Assembly (NCBI RefSeq): GCF_965237495.1
Contig: NZ_OZ250143.1
Coordinates: 298,734-362,733, forward strand
Length of the DNA: 64,000 nt
Origin: Candidatus Palauibacter sp.
GTDB taxonomy: Bacteria > Gemmatimonadota > Gemmatimonadetes > Palauibacterales > Palauibacteraceae
Reading direction: 5' to 3'
A program made the position numbers and the translations under genes. This document shows positions 48,159 through 57,732 of the stretch, piece by piece. Every line of letters begins with the position of its first letter. Position 1 is the stretch's first letter. The notes under the pieces are model-generated. The model made no database searches. It saw only the letters and a list, made by a program, of their open reading frames with translations, and was not told where the DNA came from.

Positions 48159-50675
48159 TTGAGGCCGGGGCTTGTCTCCAGTGGCGATGGTGTGAAGCCG
48201 CCCCCGCCCCCGCCCGGTGTTGCGCAAGCCTTCGCGGCCGCACTCGGTGTCCTGCTGTTGGTGCTGATCGGGGCGTGCCGGCGCGAAATCGATCCGGTCG
48301 GTCCGTCCGCCACTCGCGCGCCTGCGCCGGCGACGATACCTGCCACCGGCACGGCGATCCGCGTGAGTCCGAAGACGGTCGCGTTCTTCTCCCGGACCGG
48401 AGATCCGGATCGGGAGCTTGAATTCGAGGCCCGGTTGTTGGATGCCGCCGGGGAACCGGTGGACGCGACAGCCGTGAGCTGGACCGTAGCCGCCGGGGGC
48501 GAGGGAGCGGGACTTCGGGTCACCGGCACCGCCCTGTCGGCGGACACGCACACGTCCGTGGCCAACGTGAGTTCCGGCAGCCCGGGGCGGGGTTCCGTAC
48601 TCGCCAGCGCGGGTCCCGTGTCGGGCCGCGCGACGCTCAGGCACTGGCACTGGCTCGACGGCGCCCTGCGCGGGCCGAACTGGGGCCTGCCGGGCCAGGT
48701 CCACTGTCTCGATGTCGATCTTGCCGCTACGGACGCTCAGGGAGCGGCCGTGCGGCTCGACGAGTTCGACGGCCTGTTCGTGGTTTCGCTGAACGACGGA
48801 GTGGCGGTCGTCGATTCCCTGAACTTCTCCGGCGACGGCGCCTCGGCGCGGCTCTGCACGACCGGTCGTTCGGCCGGCACCACCGTGATAGGGGTCGTTG
48901 CCTGGGACACGACCTCGTTCAGCTACGTGGGGCAATACACCGACTACCACGTGATCGAGGCACCGGTGACGGTGGCGTTCGGCGCCGATCGCTGGGAGTT
49001 GGGTATCGGGCAGTCGGCCCGCGCATCGGTAACGCTGCGAGACAATCGCGGCGCAACGGTGCCCCTGCGGCCGGAATGGCTGGATTCGTTCGGAATCGAC
49101 GACGCATCCGTGGCCGCGATGGAGGACGGGCGGCTCAAGGGGATCTCCGCGGGCTCGACCACGCTACGCGTCGACTATCTCGGGCAGGAGGTCAGCAGGG
49201 CGGTGGATGTGTTCACCGTCGTGGATTGGCGCTTCAACGCGGATATCGCCTGCGTCCTGTTGCAGCAGGGCTCGCTGCGGTGCTGGGGCGATCGGGGCAG
49301 GGCCCTGTGGGGCTACGGCCAAGCCCGCTCGGATCTCGTGGGGCCGACGATGGTCGGCGACCTGCCGCTTGGCGGACCGGCCGTCCAGCTCCGCGGTGCA
49401 TTCCAGTGGGAATGCGCGCGCATGGCGGCGGGTGACGTGCGGTGCTGGGGGGCATCCGGCGGAGGAGTACTCGGGTACGGCAACCGTCGCGCGATCGGCG
49501 ACGACGAGACGCCCGCGGCCGCGGGTCCGGTGCCCGTCGGCGGCGGAACCGCCGCGGATCTCGGCGGTGGCGATGATTTCACGTGCGCGGTCTTCGACTC
49601 CGGACGGGTTCGCTGCTGGGGAAACAACCATGCGGGTCAACTGGGCCTGGGACACCAGCGGGAACTCGTGGTGGGCGACAACGAAACCTCCGACGCGACG
49701 GGTGACGTGGTTCTGGGGGGCCATGCCGTCCAGGTCGTGGGGGGACGGTACAGCGCGTGCGCCTTGCTCGACACGGGCAAAGTGCGGTGCTGGGGTTACA
49801 ACGGCGAGGCATGGAATCACGTCACCGGAAGATCCAGAGGGCTGAACCTGGGTCTCGGATACGGCGGGCGGGACATGCGTGAACCCATCGGCGACGACGA
49901 GACGCCGGAGTCGATGGGCGACCTGCCCCTTCCAGGCAGAGCCACCAAGCTCGCGGCAGGCGGTTACCACGTCTGCGCCATCATGGAGGGCGGGGAAGTC
50001 AGGTGCTGGGGGCGTAACTCTCATGGCGCTCTGGGCCACGGGTGGGGGCCGGGACTCAGCATCGGTGACGATGAGTCGGTTGCCCAGACGATCCCGCTCT
50101 TCTTTCCTTCGCCCGTCGTAGACATCGCGGCGGGGTATTGGCACAACTGCGCCCTGACGGAGGCGGGGTCGGTGTGGTGTTGGGGTCGCAATGCAAGCGG
50201 GCAACTCGGCCTCCCCGGGTGGGAGAGGATCGGAGACAATGAGCCCGCAATGGCGGCGGGCCCGGTCGATGTGGGCGGCCCGGTGGAACGGATCTTCGCC
50301 TTCGCGGACGGCACCTGTGCGGTCGTCCGAGGCGGCGGGCTGCGATGTTGGGGATACAACGGCGGGATTCTCGGCTACGAATTCAGCAGCAACATCGGCC
50401 GCAGTCAAACCCCCGCTTCCGTTGGCGACATTACGCTGTTCCCGGGCGCCATCCTCGAGGACAGCCACGGCGCGTCGGGTCCGCCGCCGGAACAGGCCGC
50501 ACCCGATGCGGTCCGGTCCGTGATGATGGCGCCCGCCTCCCGATATGCGGAGTGGCTGGGTCCACTGGCCGGGCCGCGCGGCGTCATCCTCCTGGATTCG
50601 CTGCCCGCGATCTCGCCTCGCGTGACCGACCTGTCACGTCGGATCAACGCGAGTTCCCGGGACGGCGGATCGTGA
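48159..50675 (+). CDS. RCC1-repeat lipoprotein
   Basis: Lipobox IGAC; seven C....G.VRCWG.N..G.LG repeats with GDDETP spacers. Confidence 0.85.
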   Translation: MRPGLVSSGDGVKPPPPPPGVAQAFAAALGVLLLVLIGACRREIDPVGPSATRAPAPATIPATGTAIRVSPKTVAFFSRTGDPDRELEFEARLLDAAGEPVDATAVSWTVAAGGEGAGLRVTGTALSADTHTSVANVSSGSPGRGSVLASAGPVSGRATLRHWHWLDGALRGPNWGLPGQVHCLDVDLAATDAQGAAVRLDEFDGLFVVSLNDGVAVVDSLNFSGDGASARLCTTGRSAGTTVIGVVAWDTTSFSYVGQYTDYHVIEAPVTVAFGADRWELGIGQSARASVTLRDNRGATVPLRPEWLDSFGIDDASVAAMEDGRLKGISAGSTTLRVDYLGQEVSRAVDVFTVVDWRFNADIACVLLQQGSLRCWGDRGRALWGYGQARSDLVGPTMVGDLPLGGPAVQLRGAFQWECARMAAGDVRCWGASGGGVLGYGNRRAIGDDETPAAAGPVPVGGGTAADLGGGDDFTCAVFDSGRVRCWGNNHAGQLGLGHQRELVVGDNETSDATGDVVLGGHAVQVVGGRYSACALLDTGKVRCWGYNGEAWNHVTGRSRGLNLGLGYGGRDMREPIGDDETPESMGDLPLPGRATKLAAGGYHVCAIMEGGEVRCWGRNSHGALGHGWGPGLSIGDDESVAQTIPLFFPSPVVDIAAGYWHNCALTEAGSVWCWGRNASGQLGLPGWERIGDNEPAMAAGPVDVGGPVERIFAFADGTCAVVRGGGLRCWGYNGGILGYEFSSNIGRSQTPASVGDITLFPGAILEDSHGASGPPPEQAAPDAVRSVMMAPASRYAEWLGPLAGPRGVILLDSLPAISPRVTDLSRRINASSRDGGS

Positions 50676-50677
50676 CG

Positions 50678-53278
50678 ATGCAAGACACGGACCAAACCGG
50701 TCGGACGCTCGCCGGAGGCGTCGTCCTTGCCTCTCTCCTCGCCCTGGCGTCCGCCTGTGGGGGGGATAACGGAACCGGACCCGTTCCGGTCCCGCCTCCA
50801 CCGCCTCCGCCGCCTCCGCCGCCTCCGCCAATGGCGGCCGCGGTCGCGGTTATGCCGGCCAGCGCTTCCTTCACCTCGCTCGGAGACACGGTCCACCTGA
50901 CGGCCAGCGTGACGGACCAATACGGGCAGCGCTTCACTGCTACGGTCACGTGGGAGAGCGAGGCCCCCACCGTGGTCACCGTCGATGCGGGAGGCGTAGC
51001 GATGTCGACGGGGAACGGTTCCGGCACGGTCCGCGCCTCGGTCGGGGAGGTGAGCGGCACGGCCGAGGCGACGGTGCGCCAGGAGGCGGCCGAGCTCACG
51101 ATAGAGCCTTCCTCGATCACATTCTCGAGCCTTGGCGACACGGCTGTGGTGGTGGTGGTGTCCGCGACGGACGCGAACGGCCACCCGGTGCCGGACCCCG
51201 CGGTGATCTGGGAGAGCAGCGCGCCTCATATCGTCGCGGTGGATTCGGCCGGCGTCGTCACGGCCGTGGCGCCAGGTAGCGCGCTCATCACCGCCACTTC
51301 CGGTGCAGCCAGCTTCAGCGTGACGGCGACCGTTGAGATCGAGACCGGCATATCGGTAACCGTGCTGGACACGACCCTTGTGCTGCCCGTCGCTGCGGGC
51401 GGTCTGCAGTGGACTCTCGAGACGGAAGAGACGCGCTGGCTGCCCGAACTGCCCGTGGCCACGGTCGAGCGCCGCGACAGCCCGCCGGGTCTCCTGATGC
51501 GGGTTCTCGGACCCGGCTGGGTGCGAGCGCGGGTCGATTTGGCTGGCGGGGGCTCCATCACGACCACAGTTGCGGTGGAGCCTCCCGATCCGTTCGTGCT
51601 GGAACTCAGACAGGACGACTGGCCGCGGGACGACGCCGTGACGGCCAGGGGATACGCGGTGGACCGCATCCCCTTTCCGGCCTTCCACGTATCGGGCGCA
51701 GGCGCGCTTCAGGCCGAAGGAGACAGCGTCGAGATGGTCTTCCGGCTCCCGCCGCTGCACGAAGGGCGGTGCGCCGGCAACCCCCTGTCGGCGGGCACCG
51801 TGGTCGTCCAGGGAATCGACGTGCGAGCCAACCCGGCCGTGAACCGCCTGGCCGGGCCGGTCGCGGCTCTGGAAGTGGGCGAGTCCTACCGTCTCAGCGG
51901 CCGGGAGGCGTGCCTGCGTCTCGTGGCGCCCCCGACCGCCCAGTACGTCCTGGCCGGGATGGAGCGGAGCACGATCGACGACACCCGCCTGCGTCCACTT
52001 GAGTGGCGCTACGGCGGCGGGGGACCCTACGAGATCGAAGTCATCGATCGCACGTCCGAACCCGCGCGCGACCGCGTGGCCGAGCCGGACGTTGAACCGG
52101 ACGAGCCGTTCTTTGCGCTGCCCAGGATGCAATCAGCCGATTTCGCCGCGGCCACCGACCATGGAATCGATGACGCCACCACGCCGTGGAAGGTTGGTGA
52201 TCGGATCGAACGGAGTGCCATCGACGGTCGTTCAGGCACTTTCGAGGTCGTCGGAGTGTATCCGCCAAACCTCGTACTCGCGGTCTTTGAACCGGACAGG
52301 GGAATCATATGGACCCCGAGGAAGGCCCGAGAGATGAATGAGGTAATGGAACGGCTCGCGTCGGACCGGATTCAGAATGTCTATCACACGATTTACGGTC
52401 CGTCGAGTCGTCCCCCGGCCAGCAACACCATCAACAACCAGCTCGTCATCATGTACAGCCGCGGAAACAACAACACCCCGGGGGGCCGCACGTCACACAA
52501 CGTCATGAATGACGACCGGCGCACCACGCTCATTCATATTGCGGACTACAGCTGGAGCCTCCAGGCCTTCTTCCACGAGTTGGTGGCCCACGAGCTGGCT
52601 CATGCCTGGCAATTCGCCAACCTTCCCGGCTTCGTCGGCGTATGGAGCTCGGAAGGAATCGCCCATTTCGTCGCCGACGAGGTGAAGCGGGCGGCCTCGG
52701 GTACGCCGCTGGACGCGAACCTGGCCCCGAACAGATACTGGCTGGGGGTGGACCTCAACGTTCCCGACACCGGGGATTTCCTCTGGGGATACCAGGAGAG
52801 CGCCGACTATCTGAGGTTCCTGGTGAACCAGCTGATCTTCGGCCAGGGCATGGCCTATGAATCCGCCGTTCATGACGTCGTGGCGGGTTTCGCCGAAGGC
52901 TACTGGGGCCACTACTACACGCACTTCGGCAGTTGGCGGCGCACCCGGACAGGCCGCGGTCTCGTGGATCGAATGCGTGCGGAGATTCCAGGCTGGGATC
53001 CGGTGGATTCCCGACTCGACTGGATGGTCTCGTACGCCATTGACGACCGCGTGCAGTTGGCCAACTACGACATCCCCTTCGTGAGGAATGCGTGGGCGGC
53101 CTTCCCACCCCGGAGGACGTTCACGCTCGGGCGGGGACAAACGGGAGGAGGCGCCGCCGCGCTGGGCGGCCAGTTCTATTTCAGGATCGAGCACGCGAAC
53201 CAGCCCGCGGGGAGCCTGCAACTGAGAGTTACGGCCGGAGACGCGGAGATGGAGTGGAAAGTTGTAAGATACCGGTAG
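50678..53278 (+). CDS. Lipoprotein with Ig-like (Big_2) domains and a zincin-like metalloprotease motif
   Basis: Lipobox ASAC, poly-Pro, W.S..P.V..VD.G.V repeats, AHELAH.WQ...W..EG.A. Confidence 0.8.
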   Translation: MQDTDQTGRTLAGGVVLASLLALASACGGDNGTGPVPVPPPPPPPPPPPPPMAAAVAVMPASASFTSLGDTVHLTASVTDQYGQRFTATVTWESEAPTVVTVDAGGVAMSTGNGSGTVRASVGEVSGTAEATVRQEAAELTIEPSSITFSSLGDTAVVVVVSATDANGHPVPDPAVIWESSAPHIVAVDSAGVVTAVAPGSALITATSGAASFSVTATVEIETGISVTVLDTTLVLPVAAGGLQWTLETEETRWLPELPVATVERRDSPPGLLMRVLGPGWVRARVDLAGGGSITTTVAVEPPDPFVLELRQDDWPRDDAVTARGYAVDRIPFPAFHVSGAGALQAEGDSVEMVFRLPPLHEGRCAGNPLSAGTVVVQGIDVRANPAVNRLAGPVAALEVGESYRLSGREACLRLVAPPTAQYVLAGMERSTIDDTRLRPLEWRYGGGGPYEIEVIDRTSEPARDRVAEPDVEPDEPFFALPRMQSADFAAATDHGIDDATTPWKVGDRIERSAIDGRSGTFEVVGVYPPNLVLAVFEPDRGIIWTPRKAREMNEVMERLASDRIQNVYHTIYGPSSRPPASNTINNQLVIMYSRGNNNTPGGRTSHNVMNDDRRTTLIHIADYSWSLQAFFHELVAHELAHAWQFANLPGFVGVWSSEGIAHFVADEVKRAASGTPLDANLAPNRYWLGVDLNVPDTGDFLWGYQESADYLRFLVNQLIFGQGMAYESAVHDVVAGFAEGYWGHYYTHFGSWRRTRTGRGLVDRMRAEIPGWDPVDSRLDWMVSYAIDDRVQLANYDIPFVRNAWAAFPPRRTFTLGRGQTGGGAAALGGQFYFRIEHANQPAGSLQLRVTAGDAEMEWKVVRYR

Positions 53279-53288
53279 CAGGTCGAAG

Positions 53289-53440
53289 GCCGAGGAAGAC
53301 GACGTTCTCCCTGCGCTCGACGAAGCCGAGTTCGTGCAGGGCGTCGATCTGCTCGCGCTTGATCGAGGGCTGGAAGCTGAAGTCGAAGTCGGCCAGCGTC
53401 TTGAGCGCGGGCAGCCGGCTGGCGCGCATGGCGGTGGCGT
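53289..53440 (-). pseudogene. istB: IS21-family IstB helper ATPase fragment
   Basis: MR.SRLP..KTL.DFDFSFQPSI.REQI..L.EL.FVER.ENVVFLG, truncated just before Walker A. Confidence 0.85.
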
Positions 53441-53543
53441 CCGGGGCCACACGGGGGGGGACTCCCCACCGTTTATCAAGAGGCTCGAGTGCGATGGCGA
53501 CGCCTTCCCCGGTCTGCGAACGGGGGCGAACACTGAGGATCGA

Positions 53544-54005
53544 TCAGGCCGCATGCCGAACCCGCGCGTGATTGGCATCGTAGACGGTTTGCGTCCTGAG
53601 CATGGCGCGGGCGACGGCCAGGAGGCGGTCGGCGGCAGGCGTGCGATTTCGCGCCGGGCGTCGCGGAGTTGCCGTTGCGCGAGGCGGAGACGTTCCGAAG
53701 CGCCGCGGATGTGGGCCACGGCGGCCTCGGTCGGTCCTCAAGGCGTCGGCGAGCACCCGGGCGTCGCGGCTGTCGTCCTTCGCCCCGGCCGGGGAGAAGC
53801 GGTCGCGGAAGCGGTCGAGCTGCTTCGGGTTGACCGCGTACACCGGATAGCCGCGGTCCATGAGGCTCTCCACCACCGGGCCGTGCGGAACCTCGATCGC
53901 CACCGGCACCTCCCCGGCGGCGGCGCCCGTCCCCGCCACGATCCACTCGGCCATCTCCGCCAGCCCCGCCCCGCCATGGCGGAACGTCCGTTCGCGCCTC
54001 ATCGC
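53544..54005 (-). pseudogene. IS110 recombinase remnant (part of the DEDD domain joined to the extreme C-terminus)
   Basis: VAIE.PHG.VVE.L...G..VYAVNPKQLDRFRDRF..AGAKDD.RDA.VLADALRTD, then ADRLL.VA.AMLR..T.YD. Confidence 0.85.
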
Positions 54006-54014
54006 CCCGATGCC

Positions 54015-54210
54015 TGCCGGTCCCTGTACTGGCGCTCGATGGCGCAACTCCCCACTGGGCATCCATCACGGCTCCGGACGCGGGTACGAGTCCCCCCCAG
54101 GTGCTCGGCGGCACGGGGGGCGCCTGGTTACTCCGCGCCCGGTTCCGCCCATCTTGTACGCAGACCAACCATAACCGAGTGTGAACTTTGCAGAAAACGA
54201 CTCGGAAAGA
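54015..54210 (-). ncRNA. Putative IS110 bridge RNA (target- and donor-binding loops)
   Basis: Guide segments match the element ends and flanks on opposite strands, each pair separated by a short hairpin (see findings). Confidence 0.7.
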
Positions 54211-54227
54211 GTACAGGAGGCGCTCAC

Positions 54228-54364
54228 CGTCTCGGTCCCCGACCTCCCCCCGGGGCGTCCGTCCCGTCCAGGCGGAGGCTGGCCGGATACTCCACTTCGG
54301 CGACGATATCCTGCGGGTGCCGATCCAGGTCGTGGACGACGCGGGCCGCGTCCTGCGAGTGATC
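54228..54364 (+). pseudogene. 3' remnant of a leishmanolysin-like gene (homologous to ~57588-57720)
   Basis: PDLPPGRP ... GRILHFGDDILRVPI.VVDD.GRV.RVI, with a small frameshifting insertion. Confidence 0.85.
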
Positions 54365-55165
54365 TGCCGATTCCGACGCATGCCGTCCACCGTTACTTGC
54401 GCCGGGCGTCCGGCGAGTGCGGAGCATGGCAGGGGGAGCAGAGTGGGTAAGCGGCGCTGGATGACCTGATGTGAGGTGCCGTTCTTCCATCCTCGCGAGA
54501 GATCCTTGAGCGAGGAGGGAGACGGTGTCCCAGCAGAGGTTGTCCATGCGCAAGATTCGAGATGTTCTCCGGCTGAAGTACGGGCTGGGCCGGAGCCACC
54601 GGGAGATCGCCGGGATACTCGGGATCTCCCACAGCACGGTCGACGGCTACGTGCGGCGGGCGCGGGAGGCGGGGGTCTCCTGCCCGTTGCCGGAGGGGCT
54701 GGACGACGGAAGCCTCGATGCGGCGCTGTATCCGGCCCGTCCCCCCTCGCGCGTGCCGCGCCCGGAGCCGGACTGGGAGCGGGTGCACCGGGAGCTGGCG
54801 CGGCACAAGGGCGTGACGCTTCAGCTTCCGTGGCTGGAGTACCGCGAGGCCCATCCCGACGGCTACCAGTACAGCCGGTTCCGCGACCGGTACCGGCAGT
54901 GGCGCGGGCGGCTGGACGTGGTGCTGCGCCAGGTGTACCGGGCGGGCGAGAAGGCGTTCGTGGACTACGCGGGCCCGACGGTGAAGGTAACGGACCGCGA
55001 GACCGGCGAGATCCACCAGGCCAAGGTGTTCGTCGGGGTGCTGGCGGCGTCGAACTACACGTTCGCCGACCTGACGCCGAGCCGGTCGTTGCCGGACTGG
55101 ACGGCTTCGCACGTGCGGATGTTCGAGTTCTGGGGCGGGGTGCCGGAACTCGTGGTTCCCGACAA
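54365..55165 (+). mobile_element. Truncated IS21-family element (left end + 5' part of istA)
   Basis: Starts TGCCGATTCCG exactly where M8 homology stops; istA at 54525. Confidence 0.8.
54525..55165 (+). pseudogene. istA: IS21-family transposase IstA, truncated
   Basis: RL.MRKIR.VLRL, PDW..VH.EL, W.EY...HPDGY.YS.F, AGEK.FVDYAG, FGG-like WGGVP..VVPD then break. Confidence 0.9.
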
Positions 55166-55168
55166 GTC

Positions 55169-56068
55169 ACGCTGAGTTCGGCTCCGAAGGCGGCCGTGGT
55201 CGTCAGCCTCAGCGCTCCGGCGACCGTGTCGGTCAGTCCCACCTCGGTGACGATCGATGCCAACGCCCTGGTGTCGGCGCCGATCACCGTAACGGCGGGT
55301 CACGACCGGAATGTGACCTCGGAGAAGGCCGTGATCACGGCCACCGCCTCGGGCGACGAGAACTACAGGGGTGCGACGGGCTCGGTCGCGGTCATGACCG
55401 CTGACGATGACTTCTCGTTGACGGCGACACCCTCGTCGGTGACCGAGAATACGCCCTTCGCCGATGCGTCGGCACGGCTCGTGACGATCACGGTGACGGC
55501 GCCCGCGGGTGGAACGGCCAGCACGAGCCCGGTCCAGCTGGGCGCCTCGGGTGCGGGCTACACGTTCCAGGAATACACGGAGGATGAGGCGTACACCGGG
55601 CAAGAGCAGACGCTACCTACGGCTACGCCAGTGGAGACCGATCCGCCCACGCTGGTGTCTTCCGTCAAGGTGTGGCTCGCCGCCGCCGACGACACCGCCG
55701 ACGAAGATCCCCAGTTGATCCAGATCGGCGAGACGCCGGAAACTGAAGAGGCGCGGATCGAGCCTGTCATGATCACGATCATGGACGCCGATCCGGATGT
55801 CACCCTCTCGATCGACGCGGTCGACGAGGGCGCGGACGAGGTCACGATGACGATCACGGCCACGGCCGCCGGCGCGATGCCGGGCATCTTCGAGATTGGC
55901 GCGGATCGTTGGGCGATTCTGGCCGAAGACGGCACCGCGGCCAATCCCGTTCCGGATGGCTACGTTTTCACGGCGTCCGGGACGTTGACGATCGACCGTA
56001 ATCAGACCGAGGGAACGGTGACCGTGACGGTGACCGTGCCCGAGGACGACGACAAGGACGACGGGTAA
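55169..56068 (+). pseudogene. Orphan C-terminal cassette (copy B) of the giant lipoprotein
   Basis: TAGHDRNV, ENTPF, RIEPVM..I.DADPDVTLSI and TIDRNQ shared with copies A and C; no start codon or signal peptide. Confidence 0.85.
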
Positions 56069-56279: not shown

Positions 56280-57732
56280 ATGGCGGGAGGGATGGACATT
56301 GGCGCACGCCGATCCTCCTCGGCCGCCCGGATTGTTGCCGGCGGGCTCCCGGCCTTCGCCGGCGCATGGGCGATCGCCTGCTCGGAGGCGCGTACCGGGC
56401 CGGAACCCGGGCCGCCGACGCCGCCCCCGACGCCGAACCGGCCGCCGGCGCCGGTGGGCGCGATTCCCGGCCAGGAGGTCGCGGTCGGGGATGCGCTCCA
56501 GGTCGCGGTCTCGTCGTACTTCACCGACCCCGATGGGGACCCGCTGACGTTCGACGCCCGTTTCTCGAATCCGGGCGTGGCGACGGCCGCGGCCGCGGAA
56601 GACCTGGTGACGCTGGCGGCGCTCGCCCCGGGTGCGGCGACGATCACGCTGACGGCTACCGATCCGGCCGGTCTCGAGACGTTCCAGAGCTTCGAGGCGA
56701 GGGTGCTGAACCACCCGCCCGGCATCACCGCCACGCTGCCGGACCTGCACCTGGAGTCGGGGGAGGAACACATGCCGGTCCTGTCCCGCTTCTTCGCGGA
56801 TCCGGACGGCGACGCCATCAACTTCTCCGCAACCTCCTCCGATGAGACTCGGGTGAGCGTCACGTCGTCGACGGACACGGTCTGGATCAGAGGCGAGTCG
56901 GAGGGCACGGCACGGATCACCGTGAGCGCCACCGACGCCCCGGGCCTCTCCGCGGCGGGTGTCCACCTGGGAGTCGGTCCTCGCGAACACCGAACTGAGC
57001 GACGTGACCTTCAACCGCCCGCTGAGCTGCGGCGGCCTGACCACGACGGAGGCCGTTGCGACCGTGGACGAACTGCTGATCCTGTTCACCGCCGCGAGCA
57101 TGGATGGCCCCCACGGAACCCTGGGCTACGCGGGCCCGTGCATCGTCCGCTCGAGTAACAGCCTGCCGATCGTCGGCCGCGTGGTCCCGGACTCGGAGGA
57201 CATGGACCGGATTCCCGCGACGACGGGACTGCTCGACGTGGTCATCCACGAGATGGCGCACATCCTCGGCTTCGGCATCCCGTGGGACGATTTCGGCCTG
57301 CTCGCGGACCCTGCGTCCGTCACGCCCGGGGCCGACACGCACTTCACCGGCGCGGGTGCCATCGCGGCCTTCAATGCTGCCGGCGGCGCGAGCTACACGG
57401 GCGCCAAGGTACCCGTCCAGAACGAGGAGCCCGGGCCGGAGAGCCACTGGCGCGAATCGATCTTCCGGGGGGAGACGATGAGCCCGGTGGAATACACCGA
57501 CCGCGGCGAGTCCCTGAGCGCGATCACAATCCGGTCGCTGGCCGACCTCGGCTATACGGTCGACACTGTCCTCGCCGACCCGTACGGCGTCTCGCTCCCC
57601 GACCTCCCCCCGGGGCGTCCGGTCCAGGCGGAGGCCGGCCGGATCCTCCACTTCGGCGACGACATCCTGCGGGTGCCGATCCGCGTCGTGGACGACGAGG
57701 GCCGCGTCATCCGAGTGATCCCGCCCCGCTGA
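56280..57732 (+). pseudogene. Ig-repeat + leishmanolysin-like (M8) metalloprotease lipoprotein, frame broken near 56955
   Basis: Lipobox AIAC, two FxDPDGD repeats; second frame has HEMAHILGFG, THFTG, SHWRES.F.GE.M. Confidence 0.75.

Follow-up and report, generated by a model that had tools for sequence, protein, structure and literature searches.

A decayed IS110-group insertion sequence with a readable bridge RNA in a Candidatus Palauibacter genome

The window analyzed here is a 64,000-nucleotide stretch of the genome of Candidatus Palauibacter sp. (phylum Gemmatimonadota; contig NZ_OZ250143.1, positions 298,734 to 362,733). On its minus strand, from 54215 to 53461, lies a 755-bp IS110-group element, to which we refer as the short copy. 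Its left junction reads GTGAGCGCC-TCC-TGTACT (54227..54210) and its right junction reads GTGGGGAG-TCC-CCCCCCGT (53469..53451). The short copy sits among fragments of other repeats. The locus had been singled out by a sequence-only reading, and all of the strings and coordinates quoted there are present on the minus strand. The features, in the order in which that strand is read, are as follows.

53461..54215, minus strand: whole decayed IS110-group element, 755 bp, running from TGTACT to GGTGGGGAGT; its ends are common to the 1,447-bp long copy and to the homologs with located ends
54218..54224, minus strand: left remnant of the target, AGCGCCT, which the left target guide reads (guide match 7/9, core included)
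54216..54217, minus strand: left CC core copy, preceded at 54218 by T, where the long copy has C
54152..54215, minus strand: left end, variable 5' part, containing a hairpin (CCGAGT/ACTCGG) and TACTCT as a -10-like sequence (54213..54208)
54008..54151, minus strand: bridge RNA core, comprising a target-binding loop and a donor-binding loop (covariance model R1, 142.7 bits, E 1e-28)
54115..54124, minus strand: left target guide GGCGCCCCCC on the 5' side of the first internal loop, co-varying with the left flank across 29 guide pairs
54101..54114, minus strand: distal stem-loop of the target-binding loop, GTGC-CGCCGA-GCAC, whose second pair changes from U-A to C-G in 2/13 sequences
54091..54100, minus strand: right target guide CTGGGGGGGA on the 3' side of the first internal loop, whose reverse complement TCCCCCCCAG matches the right junction
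54047..54055, minus strand: left donor guide GTGGGGAGT, identical to the right end at 53469..53461
54021..54030, minus strand: right donor guide AGTACAGGGA; its part AGTACAGG (54030..54023) is the reverse complement of 54217..54210
53728..54009, minus strand: recombinase remnant 1, a RuvC-like (DEDD) fragment with the start codon and first catalytic Asp deleted, 96% identical to the long copy
53635..53737, minus strand: recombinase remnant 2, a frameshifted linker fragment, 91% identical to the long copy (G000:C1 1170504-1170606)
53544..53633, minus strand: recombinase remnant 3, the last ~28 codons and the stop, left by a deletion that took away the Tnp domain and its catalytic Ser
53461..53543, minus strand: right non-coding end with a -35-like TTGATA at 53479..53474; the consensus cTTgacAAatGGTGGGGAGT is conserved in 34 junctions
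53459..53460, minus strand: right CC core copy, forming the start of an 8-C run (53453..53460)
53453..53458, minus strand: right remnant of the target, CCCCCC, to which the right target guide is complementary (match 8/9, core included)

The three coding remnants can be compared with a full-length relative, the 1,447-bp long copy, which is located in the same genome on the same strand, ~818 kb apart. Relative to this copy, the short copy has three internal deletions of ~112, 221, and 361 bp at microhomologies (8-nt and 10-nt reported), which include frameshifts. Remnant 1 matches the PF01548 model only partially (profile 23-112 of 155, E 7e-14), and PF02371 (Transposase_20/Tnp) has no match in the short copy. 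Because the Ser-bearing Tnp domain is absent, the short copy is a remnant of an IS110-group member and not a functional member, and it makes no recombinase at present. The earlier proposal that the recombinase had lost its N-terminus and middle is thus borne out by the comparison with the long copy and by both domain searches.

The long copy has a left end of 236 nt and a right end of 86 nt, and its open reading frame is open. Its product contains a complete PF01548 domain and PF02371 at residues 246-328, and a homolog carries both domains, too. Both proteins exceed the cut-off of 140 bits for the NF033542 model, "IS110 family RNA-guided transposase" (162.3 bits for the long copy and 175.6 bits for the homolog). 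The transposase of the homolog is related to the solved transposases of IS621 (E 5e-10) and ISCro4 (E 9e-9), and an SGK motif aligns with the Ser region of IS621. The recombinase of the long copy is missing 41 residues that are kept in 9/9 aligned homologs. This gap need not mean a dead recombinase: it falls in the inter-domain stretch, which comprises about 124 residues in this clade and which IS621 spans with about 37, so the recombinase could still work, judging by the alignment. On the other hand, mobilization of the short copy in trans is unproven, because this is the only related recombinase in the genome and it lacks these conserved residues. The eight other IS110-family loci in the genome are unrelated at E 1e-20.

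The boundaries of the short copy coincide with those of its homologs. CC lies directly 5' of TGTAC in 19/19 copies in one junction table and in 54/54 copies in another, and the boundaries of multi-copy homologs are (C)TGTACC and GGTGGGGAGT. CC stands at both junctions in the tabulated copies, with a register that is uncertain by one base in C-runs, and the element has no terminal inverted repeats. For example, Amylibacter-type relatives have the junction TTTT-CC-TGTACC and the donor AAGT-CC-TGTACC. The core had previously been read as TCC. It is indeed a core other than CT, as that reading held, but it consists of CC within a C-run: at the right junction, the T still belongs to the element, which ends in GGGGAGT, and it is conserved in the located homologs; at the left junction, the T is replaced by C in the long copy. 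The flank of the long copy matches its own left target guide in 9/9 positions. A paralogous empty site of the kind that the sequence-only reading had anticipated, GGCCGTTCAGCCCCCCGCGCGGGAGG, is present in the same genome and, when compared with the flanks of the long copy, brackets the same boundaries.

The register of the left guide relative to the flank is shifted by one C when C-run targets are compared with REP-type targets, and the same shift separates two copies of a single element. The crossover could therefore not be assigned one register, as CC before CTGTAC and CC before TGTAC both fit, in different elements. At the -10-like place of the left end, TACC(T/C)T is found in 34 junctions. 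A contig from X1 covers 53385-53787 without any difference from the window. In the contigs of X1-X4, neither a joint skipping the whole element nor a circle junction was seen, which, with contigs only, has no bearing on absence.

The left end had been described as a three-part noncoding region, of which the two loops are supported and the first part is not. The hairpin CCGAGT..ACTCGG is present (54205..54200 paired with 54180..54175); however, it folds no better than shuffled sequences (z +0.47), it is not kept in the long copy, and it has no support in this lineage. The loops had been described correctly apart from the omission of CT between GCAC and GGGGGGGA (54098..54091, minus strand) and of single spacer bases beside the second stem. 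The consensus structure of the bridge RNA contains 29 pairs, and 96.0% of its cells are paired, compared with 23-45% when the partners are slid. The stem covariation score is 0.151, compared with 0.096 for shuffled alignments (0/500 shuffles as high), and four pairs are changed on both sides. All of the compensatory changes fall in the stems of the target-binding loop, and those of the donor loop hardly vary. Since the target programme is poly-C, the two target guides are complementary to each other, and in a single-sequence fold the C-run guide is joined to the G-run guide; this fold, which does not surpass those of shuffled sequences (z -0.70), was set aside in favor of the alignment fold. 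A search of Rfam with E up to 10 revealed no bridge RNA family at the locus; it returned only a sub-threshold match to Ms_AS-4 inside the dead gene.

The guides match the ends and flanks far more often than chance would allow. The 183-nt interior of the left end contains each of the three exact matches (one 9-mer and two 8-mers) a single time. When this interior was shuffled 200,000 times, the single matches occurred at frequencies of 0.0017, 0.0023, and 0.026, and all three together never occurred. The left-target match of the short copy is 7/8. Among 12 representatives, guides and flanks agree at 92/108 positions on the left (0/20,000 permutations) and 77/108 on the right (14/20,000). In a larger set of 29 distinct guide pairs, guides match their own left flanks at 7.48/9 positions on average, compared with 4.98 for other flanks, and their own right flanks at 6.55 of 9, compared with 4.81; neither value was reached in 100,000 permutations. 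Donor guides change together with the ends as well: the left donor guide and the right end do so in relatives with GTAAGGAG, GTGGGAAG, and GTAGGGAG, and the AATACAGG variants of the right donor guide accompany TGTAT left ends. These counts exclude four of 23 loci in which the regular expression missed the loops (L065, L059, L050, and L067), 21 of 75 loci in which the guide-derived search for element ends failed, and L127, where the call of the right end looked wrong. The matches and the covariation support the central proposal of the earlier reading, namely an IS110-group element whose left end carries a target-binding loop and, after it, a donor-binding loop, with two guides for opposite strands in each loop. 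They refute the suggestion that the guide matches are a chance product of G+C-rich sequence full of C-runs, to which we give practically no credence. On the one hand, the genome has a G+C content of 68.5%, with 195 runs of eight or more C and 205 GCGCCCCCC sites, and a poly-C target makes the target guides mutually complementary so that they pair in a single-sequence fold. On the other hand, neither the shuffling result nor covariation that extends to programmes that are not C-rich (CAGCATACC, CTCTGACCC, GGTTTTCC, and GGGGTCCC) is compatible with it.

At least 583 related stretches were found in species-representative genomes. The clade occurs in Gemmatimonadota, Alphaproteobacteria, Vicinamibacterales, Bryobacterales, Rhodothermales, and Chloroflexota, and model R1 places the RNA ~50-200 nt upstream of the gene in 75/80 loci. 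The clade had been called poorly studied, which is correct in the sense of unstudied and not in the sense of rare. As judged from these sequences, it is a widespread, uncharacterized IS110 clade in which the core is CC, the left guide measures 9 nt, and the right guide is longer, and its natural programmes are many.

The short form is confined to a single copy. Model R1 has two matches in the genome, the short copy and the long copy, and no further copy of the short form was found in this genome or in 35 other genomes of the genus. Neither the junction string of deletion 1 nor the exact target-binding loop occurs in the metagenome contigs (0 stretches each). In a sister genome, G012, the ortholog (G012:C8) has the same right junction, except that the run has 7 C, and a flank that is 98% identical over ~1 kb. 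Of the Tnp domain lost from the short copy, 276 nt are retained in this ortholog, which has no bridge RNA. Because the same insertion has different deletions in the two genomes, the short form arose by decay in place.

Thus, the short copy is very probably what is left of a full-length IS110-group insertion sequence: an ordinary fossil, belonging to a known kind of element, with a bridge RNA that is still legible. A full-length element would have been inserted, guided by its bridge RNA, at an AGCGCC(C/T)-CC-CCCCCC site. In the first internal loop, the left target guide represents the top strand of the left flank plus CC, and the right target guide is the complement of CC and the right flank. 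The second internal loop, which is conserved, supplies the donor guide pair for the right and left ends of the element. By analogy with IS621, transposition would have proceeded via a circle, whose RE-CC-LE junction would rebuild a promoter, with the recombinase catalyzing the exchange at the core. In the three microhomology deletions, the gene lost its ribosome-binding site and start codon, the first catalytic Asp, some of the linker, and all of the Tnp domain with its Ser, but both ends and the ~145-nt bridge RNA stayed intact. The short copy is most likely immobile. Nevertheless, given a cognate recombinase, it would still be competent as a substrate, because both ends, all four guides, and all RNA helices are intact.

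The earlier reading saw here a non-autonomous RNA-guided element, a term that suggests a mobilizable miniature. In favor of a MITE-like element moved in trans by a paralogous recombinase, the ends and the RNA are intact, a related recombinase gene is open elsewhere in the genome, the short copy retains both its -35-like and its -10-like half of the junction promoter, and an IS110-family MITE-like derivative, MITEPpu9, has been described (PMC12288879). However, a MITE-like derivative is expected in multiple copies, and this one is single, lies among repeat fragments, has no counterpart in the 35 other genomes of the genus, and has a deletion junction that is absent from the metagenome contigs. 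Furthermore, the ortholog in G012 points to a full-length ancestor that decayed in place, differently in each genome; the short form results from three separate microhomology deletions with frameshifts; the only related recombinase is without the 41 otherwise conserved residues; and, beside or within the core, the left junction differs from that of the long copy, with T instead of C. Altogether, we consider a MITE-like origin improbable. Still less probable is that the bridge RNA was co-opted as a small RNA of the host or of the element, regulating the long copy or guiding recombination between copies or at poly-C sites, and was kept for that reason. The RNA is structurally intact in a wrecked gene, and one perfect unoccupied target, AGCGCCCCCCCCCC, is present in the genome at about 4,029,783. 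Yet the RNA part is no better conserved between the short and long copies (146/151 positions identical) than the adjacent dead coding part (270/282), so there is no sign of selection on the RNA, although it could still be in use. Moreover, a scan of the integrated context (53300-54400) found no sigma-70-like promoter and no terminator, and the G012 ortholog lost the RNA altogether.

A further possibility, which we regard as unlikely, is that the short copy is still a live substrate. The shortened recombinase of the long copy would have to be active and would use the bridge RNA of either copy to excise or move the short copy or to recombine the two. If so, the two copies would form a naturally split bridge system that acts in trans. 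Such a reading would extend to the clade as a whole, with a CC core in a C-run, a register that can slip by one base, and poly-C guides that pair with each other. Under the fossil interpretation, the short copy reveals no new mechanism. It is a clean example of the death of an element by microhomology deletions that differ between sister genomes, and its bridge RNA programme was legible in the raw sequence itself and was borne out by checks that the earlier reading had proposed. The many natural programmes and the CC core of its clade may be of interest to those seeking new bridge recombinases.

The bridge RNA system of the IS110 group is best represented by IS621 from E. coli (Durrant et al. 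2024, PMC11208160; Hiraizumi et al. 2024, PMC11208158). As IS621 is described in PMC11208160, the two elements are alike in the recombinase with a DEDD RuvC-like domain and a Ser-bearing Tnp domain (here in the long copy and homologs), the long left end with the RNA and the short right end, and the order of the target-binding and donor-binding loops. They also share left guides that represent the top strand and right guides that are complementary, a variable first loop and a conserved second one, a dinucleotide core duplicated at both junctions, a -35 element in the right end and a -10 element in the left end that would join across the circle junction, and, in some relatives, REP-like hairpins as targets. 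In contrast to the CT core of IS621, the core here is CC inside a C-run, and the right target guide seemingly reads ~7 nt beyond the core, compared with four bases in IS621 (same source). The recombinase is distant from that of IS621 (E 5e-10), with an inter-domain stretch ~87 residues longer; poly-C is a common programme in this clade; and the present copy is dead.

ISCro4/IS622 (Perry et al. 2025 preprint, 10.1101/2025.05.14.653916; PDB 9t56) belongs to the same family and has handshake guides upstream of the core. Here, the reverse complement of the right target guide has a constant T before CC, which equals the last base of the right end and may fit the idea of a handshake guide. ISCro4/IS622 differs in having CT or GT cores and is only distantly related (E 9e-9). 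MITEPpu9, associated with ISPpu9 of Pseudomonas putida, resembles the short copy as a short derivative with IS110-family ends, proposed to be moved by the transposase in trans; MITEPpu9 is present eight times in KT2440 and includes the small RNA gene ssr9 (PMC12288879), whereas the short copy is single, carries a bridge RNA and dead gene fragments, and decayed in place. Elements of the IS1111 group share the recombinase family and the RNA-guided logic, but, as described in PMC11208160, they have the RNA in a long right end and subterminal inverted repeats. Because the RNA of the short copy sits in the left end, it belongs to the IS110 group and not to IS1111.

The 755-bp IS110-group element of the window (positions 54215 to 53461, minus strand; hereafter the miniature) works like, and descends from, an IS110-group bridge RNA system, in which target guides read the insertion flanks and donor guides read the element's own ends. 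Every string that a sequence-only reading had quoted for it is present at its coordinates on the minus strand.

Junctions and guide loops of the miniature (window coordinates)
54227..54210, minus: left junction, GTGAGCGCC-TCC-TGTACT
53470..53451, minus: right junction, GGTGGGGAG-TCC-CCCCCCGT
54124..54115, minus: first loop, 5' side, GGCGCCCCCC
54114..54101, minus: stem-loop of the first loop, GTGC-CGCCGA-GCAC
54100..54091, minus: first loop, 3' side, CTGGGGGGGA
54055..54047, minus: second loop, 5' side, GTGGGGAGT
minus: stem-loop of the second loop, GCGC-CATCGA-GCGC
54030..54021, minus: second loop, 3' side, AGTACAGGGA

The second-loop string GTGGGGAGT is identical to the right end of the miniature; the reverse complement of its left end is AGTACAGG, that of its right flank is GGGGGGGA, and its left flank has a best guide match of 7/8. 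Shuffling the 183-nt left-end interior 200,000 times never produced the three exact guide matches jointly; taken singly, they came up at rates of 0.0017, 0.0023, and 0.026. The 5' hairpin described ahead of the two loops is present in the sequence, but its stability does not exceed that of shuffles (z +0.47), and the long copy, a 1,447-bp relative in the same genome (G000), does not preserve it.

A DNA search of this genome identified the long copy as the one other locus, at G000:C1 ~1,171,412..1,169,966 on the same strand; eight other IS110-family loci are unrelated at E 1e-20. Its open ORF encodes a protein of 374 residues in which both IS110 domains are present (PF01548, residues 9-160; PF02371, residues 246-328); this protein passes the NCBIfam model NF033542, "IS110 family RNA-guided transposase" (162.3 bits, cut-off 140). 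A homolog matched the solved transposases IS621 (E 5e-10) and ISCro4 (E 9e-9), with the Asp/Glu/Asp-x-x-Asp and Ser-Gly motifs aligned. The long-copy protein has a 41-residue gap, and the missing segment, including a W-RYYP motif, is present in 9/9 aligned homologs. Because the gap lies between the domains, in a stretch of ~124 residues in the miniature's clade but ~37 in IS621, this recombinase is possibly impaired rather than dead. In pairwise alignment, the miniature is the long copy minus three internal stretches, with sizes recomputed from alignment coordinates: ~112 bp at an 8-nt microhomology (CGGGGCGA), removing the ribosome-binding site, start codon, and first catalytic Asp; ~221 bp at a 10-nt microhomology; and ~361 bp, removing the Tnp domain. 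Its remaining frame matches PF01548 only (profile positions 23-112 of 155). Lacking a Tnp domain, the miniature does not qualify as a functional IS110-group element and is a remnant of a member.

The sequence-only reading took the short form for a non-autonomous miniature, and on that account it would be mobile rather than a fossil. The miniature would indeed still be a complete substrate, and the long copy offers an open ORF whose gap lies where IS621 has a far shorter stretch. On the other hand, a genus search with the miniature's locus identified a copy in the sister genome G012 (G012:C8) that shares its right junction (AAACGGTGGGGAGT, C-run, GTGTGGCCCCGGAC) and a right flank 98% identical over ~1 kb. 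This copy keeps two pieces lost in the window copy, 276 nt from the Tnp domain and 45 nt of N-terminal coding sequence, and is itself without the entire left end and RNA, its left deletion running from the flank into the gene with GGACGG microhomology. The insertion was therefore full-length in an ancestor of both genomes, or else in a transferred segment that they share, and its decay took a different course in each. Moreover, the short form occurs once in the G000 and genus searches, the metagenome contigs searched do not contain its deletion junction, and its RNA part (97% identical to the long copy, 146/151) is not better conserved than the adjacent dead coding sequence (RuvC part 96%, 270/282; other pieces 91% and 76%). 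A mobile miniature is thus very improbable.

The miniature is a known kind of element, present as a decayed single copy, and the original observation was correct and well-read. A 2024 paper reported a predicted RNA for 85.7% of IS110s, with an analysis limited to "CT core guides" (PMC11208160); this already implies cores other than CT and a wide spread of predicted bridge RNAs. A MITE-like IS110 derivative is also in print (PMC12288879). Nothing on the miniature's clade was found in literature searches on IS110 bridge RNAs, including non-autonomous and MITE forms, although the supplementary tables of the 2024 paper may list it.

In an alignment of 13 left ends, the consensus fold and a pair count made on a hand-written structure agree on two RNA elements: a base stem and distal stem around a large, variable internal loop and, 3' of it, a base stem and distal stem around a conserved internal loop. 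The 29 pairs are paired in 96.0% of cells, against 23-45% with partners slid by 1-3 columns; 4 pairs changed on both sides (11 cells), and the covariation score is 0.151 versus 0.096 for shuffled alignments (observed value reached by 0/500). All compensatory changes lie within the stems of the first (target) loop, whereas the donor-loop stems barely vary, so that the alignment neither supports nor contradicts them. The covariance model derived from it matched 75/80 distant loci, with a constant position upstream of the gene, and has exactly two matches in G000. The published IS110 bridge RNA has a 5' stem-loop and, after it, a pair of stem-loops with internal loops, of which the first varies and the second is conserved (PMC11208160); the RNA of the miniature's clade fits this architecture except for the 5' stem-loop, which has no support here.

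The guides change together with the flanks. In a first set of 19 tabulated copies (4 further loci failed the pattern search and were left out), the left flank is identical to the 9 nt 5' of the distal stem in genomes G197 (CAGCATACC) and G384 (GAGCGACCC), in two elements of G396 (CAGCCTACC, CCGGACCCC), and in the long copy (AGCGCCCCC), with 7/9 in the miniature; the right flank is tracked by the reverse complement of the loop's 3' side. Among 12 representatives, guide and flank agree at 92/108 positions on the left (0/20,000 permutations) and 77/108 on the right (14/20,000). For a second set, ends were located via the donor guides in 54/75 distant matches (the other 21 failed), locus L127 was dropped, the two G000 copies were added, and the first copy per distinct guide pair was kept (n=29). 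Own matches averaged 7.48/9 versus 4.98 for cross pairs on the left and 6.55 versus 4.81 on the right, values reached by 0/100,000 permutations on each side. Donor guide and right end also change together, GTAAGGAG, GTGGGAAG, and GTAGGGAG each occurring in both places, and TGTAT left ends accompany AATACAGG guides. Several copies match on one side only, e.g., G197 copies with unrelated right flanks; "half-match" recombination has been described as a source of off-target insertion (10.64898/2026.08.31.748434).

The proposed TCC core did not hold. The right end finishes GGAGT in all located copies except the excluded L127, so that the T of the right junction is its last base, and the base before CC at the left junction varies: it is T in the miniature and C in the long copy, while REP-type targets have A or C. 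The constant part is CC, directly after GGAGT and directly before TGTAC, as in the clean case of Amylibacter-type relatives (TTTT-CC-TGTACC, donor AAGT-CC-TGTACC). In the Gemmatimonadota lineage the donor junction is GAGT-CCC-TGTAC and left junctions take two forms, guide match + C + TGTAC or guide match + TGTAC; as two G384 copies also differ by one C, the crossover register can be fixed only to within one base. Such one-C differences may stem from slippage or from errors in homopolymer length. The right-junction C-run has 7 C in the G012 ortholog versus 8 in G000, and contigs of metagenome run X1, which may be the assembly's own source, span both window-copy junctions without difference. In the reverse complement of the right target guide, an invariant T precedes CC and is the same base as the one that closes the right end, which, we infer, fits the published handshake-guide idea.

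Across 34 distinct junctions the right-end consensus is cTTgacAAatGGTGGGGAGT and the left end starts TGTACCttT; joined in a circle, the two would thus give TTGACA-like, 17-18 nt, TACC(T/C)T, and the miniature retains TTGATA and TACTCT. Excision is reported to rebuild a promoter across the core (Durrant et al., PMC11208160). A scan of the integrated miniature locus found no promoter-like site, in agreement with the weak expression reported for chromosomal IS621 loci (PMC13626964).

The long copy lies directly after a LuxR-type response-regulator gene that, with its downstream region, has paralogs in G000, one of them an empty site. The empty site reads GGCCGTTCAGCCCCCCGCGCGGGAGG and the occupied one GGCCGTTCAGCGCCCCC, element, CCCCCCCCCCCGCGCGGGAGG, so that the long copy has a GC-rich half-site on its left and a C-run on its other side. 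One perfect unoccupied site, AGCGCCCCCCCCCC, lies at ~4,029,783 in G000. The sensor-kinase-end/response-regulator module has at least four G000 paralogs, 77-94% identical. Also near the long copy, 249 bp (L006 1-249, G000:C1 1169000-1169248) recur at 100% identity at G000 2065066 and 937062 and at 87-99% in G025, G012, G016, G028, and G032, and are probably another small repeat or mobile element.

Features around the two copies (window coordinates unless stated)
53229-53450, minus: IstB fragment (IS21 remnant; PF01695, profile 51-99 of 238)
54525-55175, plus: IstA-like N-terminal ORF with helix-turn-helix (IS21 remnant)
G000:C1 652782, 2598631, 3811628, 1074996: module paralogs (L006 2430-3401), the empty-site paralog among them

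The target-like flank of the miniature extends only ~12 nt left and ~20 nt right, with a repeat beyond it on one side and the fragment of IstB (IS21 helper) on the other; its surroundings are a graveyard of mobile-element pieces, with IS21 remnants on both sides. The outer left flank is a ~137-bp repeat (54228-54364, minus) with paralogs at G000:C1 356321-356453 (window ~57588-57720) and 366007-366137; the nearby G000 copies and those in G025 are 87-91% identical. Next to the IstB fragment ends a 977-residue ORF (50345-53278, plus) with a proline-rich N-terminal stretch and an HExxH-like motif, HELVAHELAHAW, which may encode a secreted metalloprotease.

Within the genus, the protein or left end was detected in 4/35 other genomes, as broken pieces every time, and the RNA model gave 4 matches in 3/36 genomes (G000 counted). 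In a phylum sample 12/401 genomes matched, G000 counted; the other 11 are all members of a single family in the host's own class (11/70), where relatives are intact, multi-copy, and 1.55-2.0 kb long. The 80 best of at least 583 related stretches in species-representative genomes come from Longimicrobiales and Gemmatimonadetes MAGs, Alphaproteobacteria (including Azospirillum canadense and Lichenibacterium minor), Vicinamibacterales, Bryobacterales, Rhodothermales, Chloroflexota, and others. Similarity between copies of one genome breaks off on the left at (C)TGTACC and on the right at GGTGGGGAGT, the ends of the window copy. The copy in the congeneric genome G011 belongs with a REP-targeting lineage and not with that of G000, which suggests separate arrivals of the element in the genus.

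In Longimicrobiales relatives and G011 the element follows directly on the 3' side of a REP-like palindrome, GGCTGGCTC...GAGCCAGC (L046, L056, L069, L054, L045, L150), and the left guide reads the palindrome's last bases. Some relatives (L054/L043, L055/L044, L045, L057, L060) carry 300-500 extra bases between stop codon and right end (1.77-2.03 kb versus ~1.55 kb), recalling the 3' expansions of a 2026 preprint (10.64898/2026.08.14.744561). In contigs of four metagenome runs, summed depth reaches thousands over the donor-binding loop (window 53969-54082) and over a conserved segment of RuvC (53798-53854), and tens on the flanks; many related elements of other organisms share both segments.
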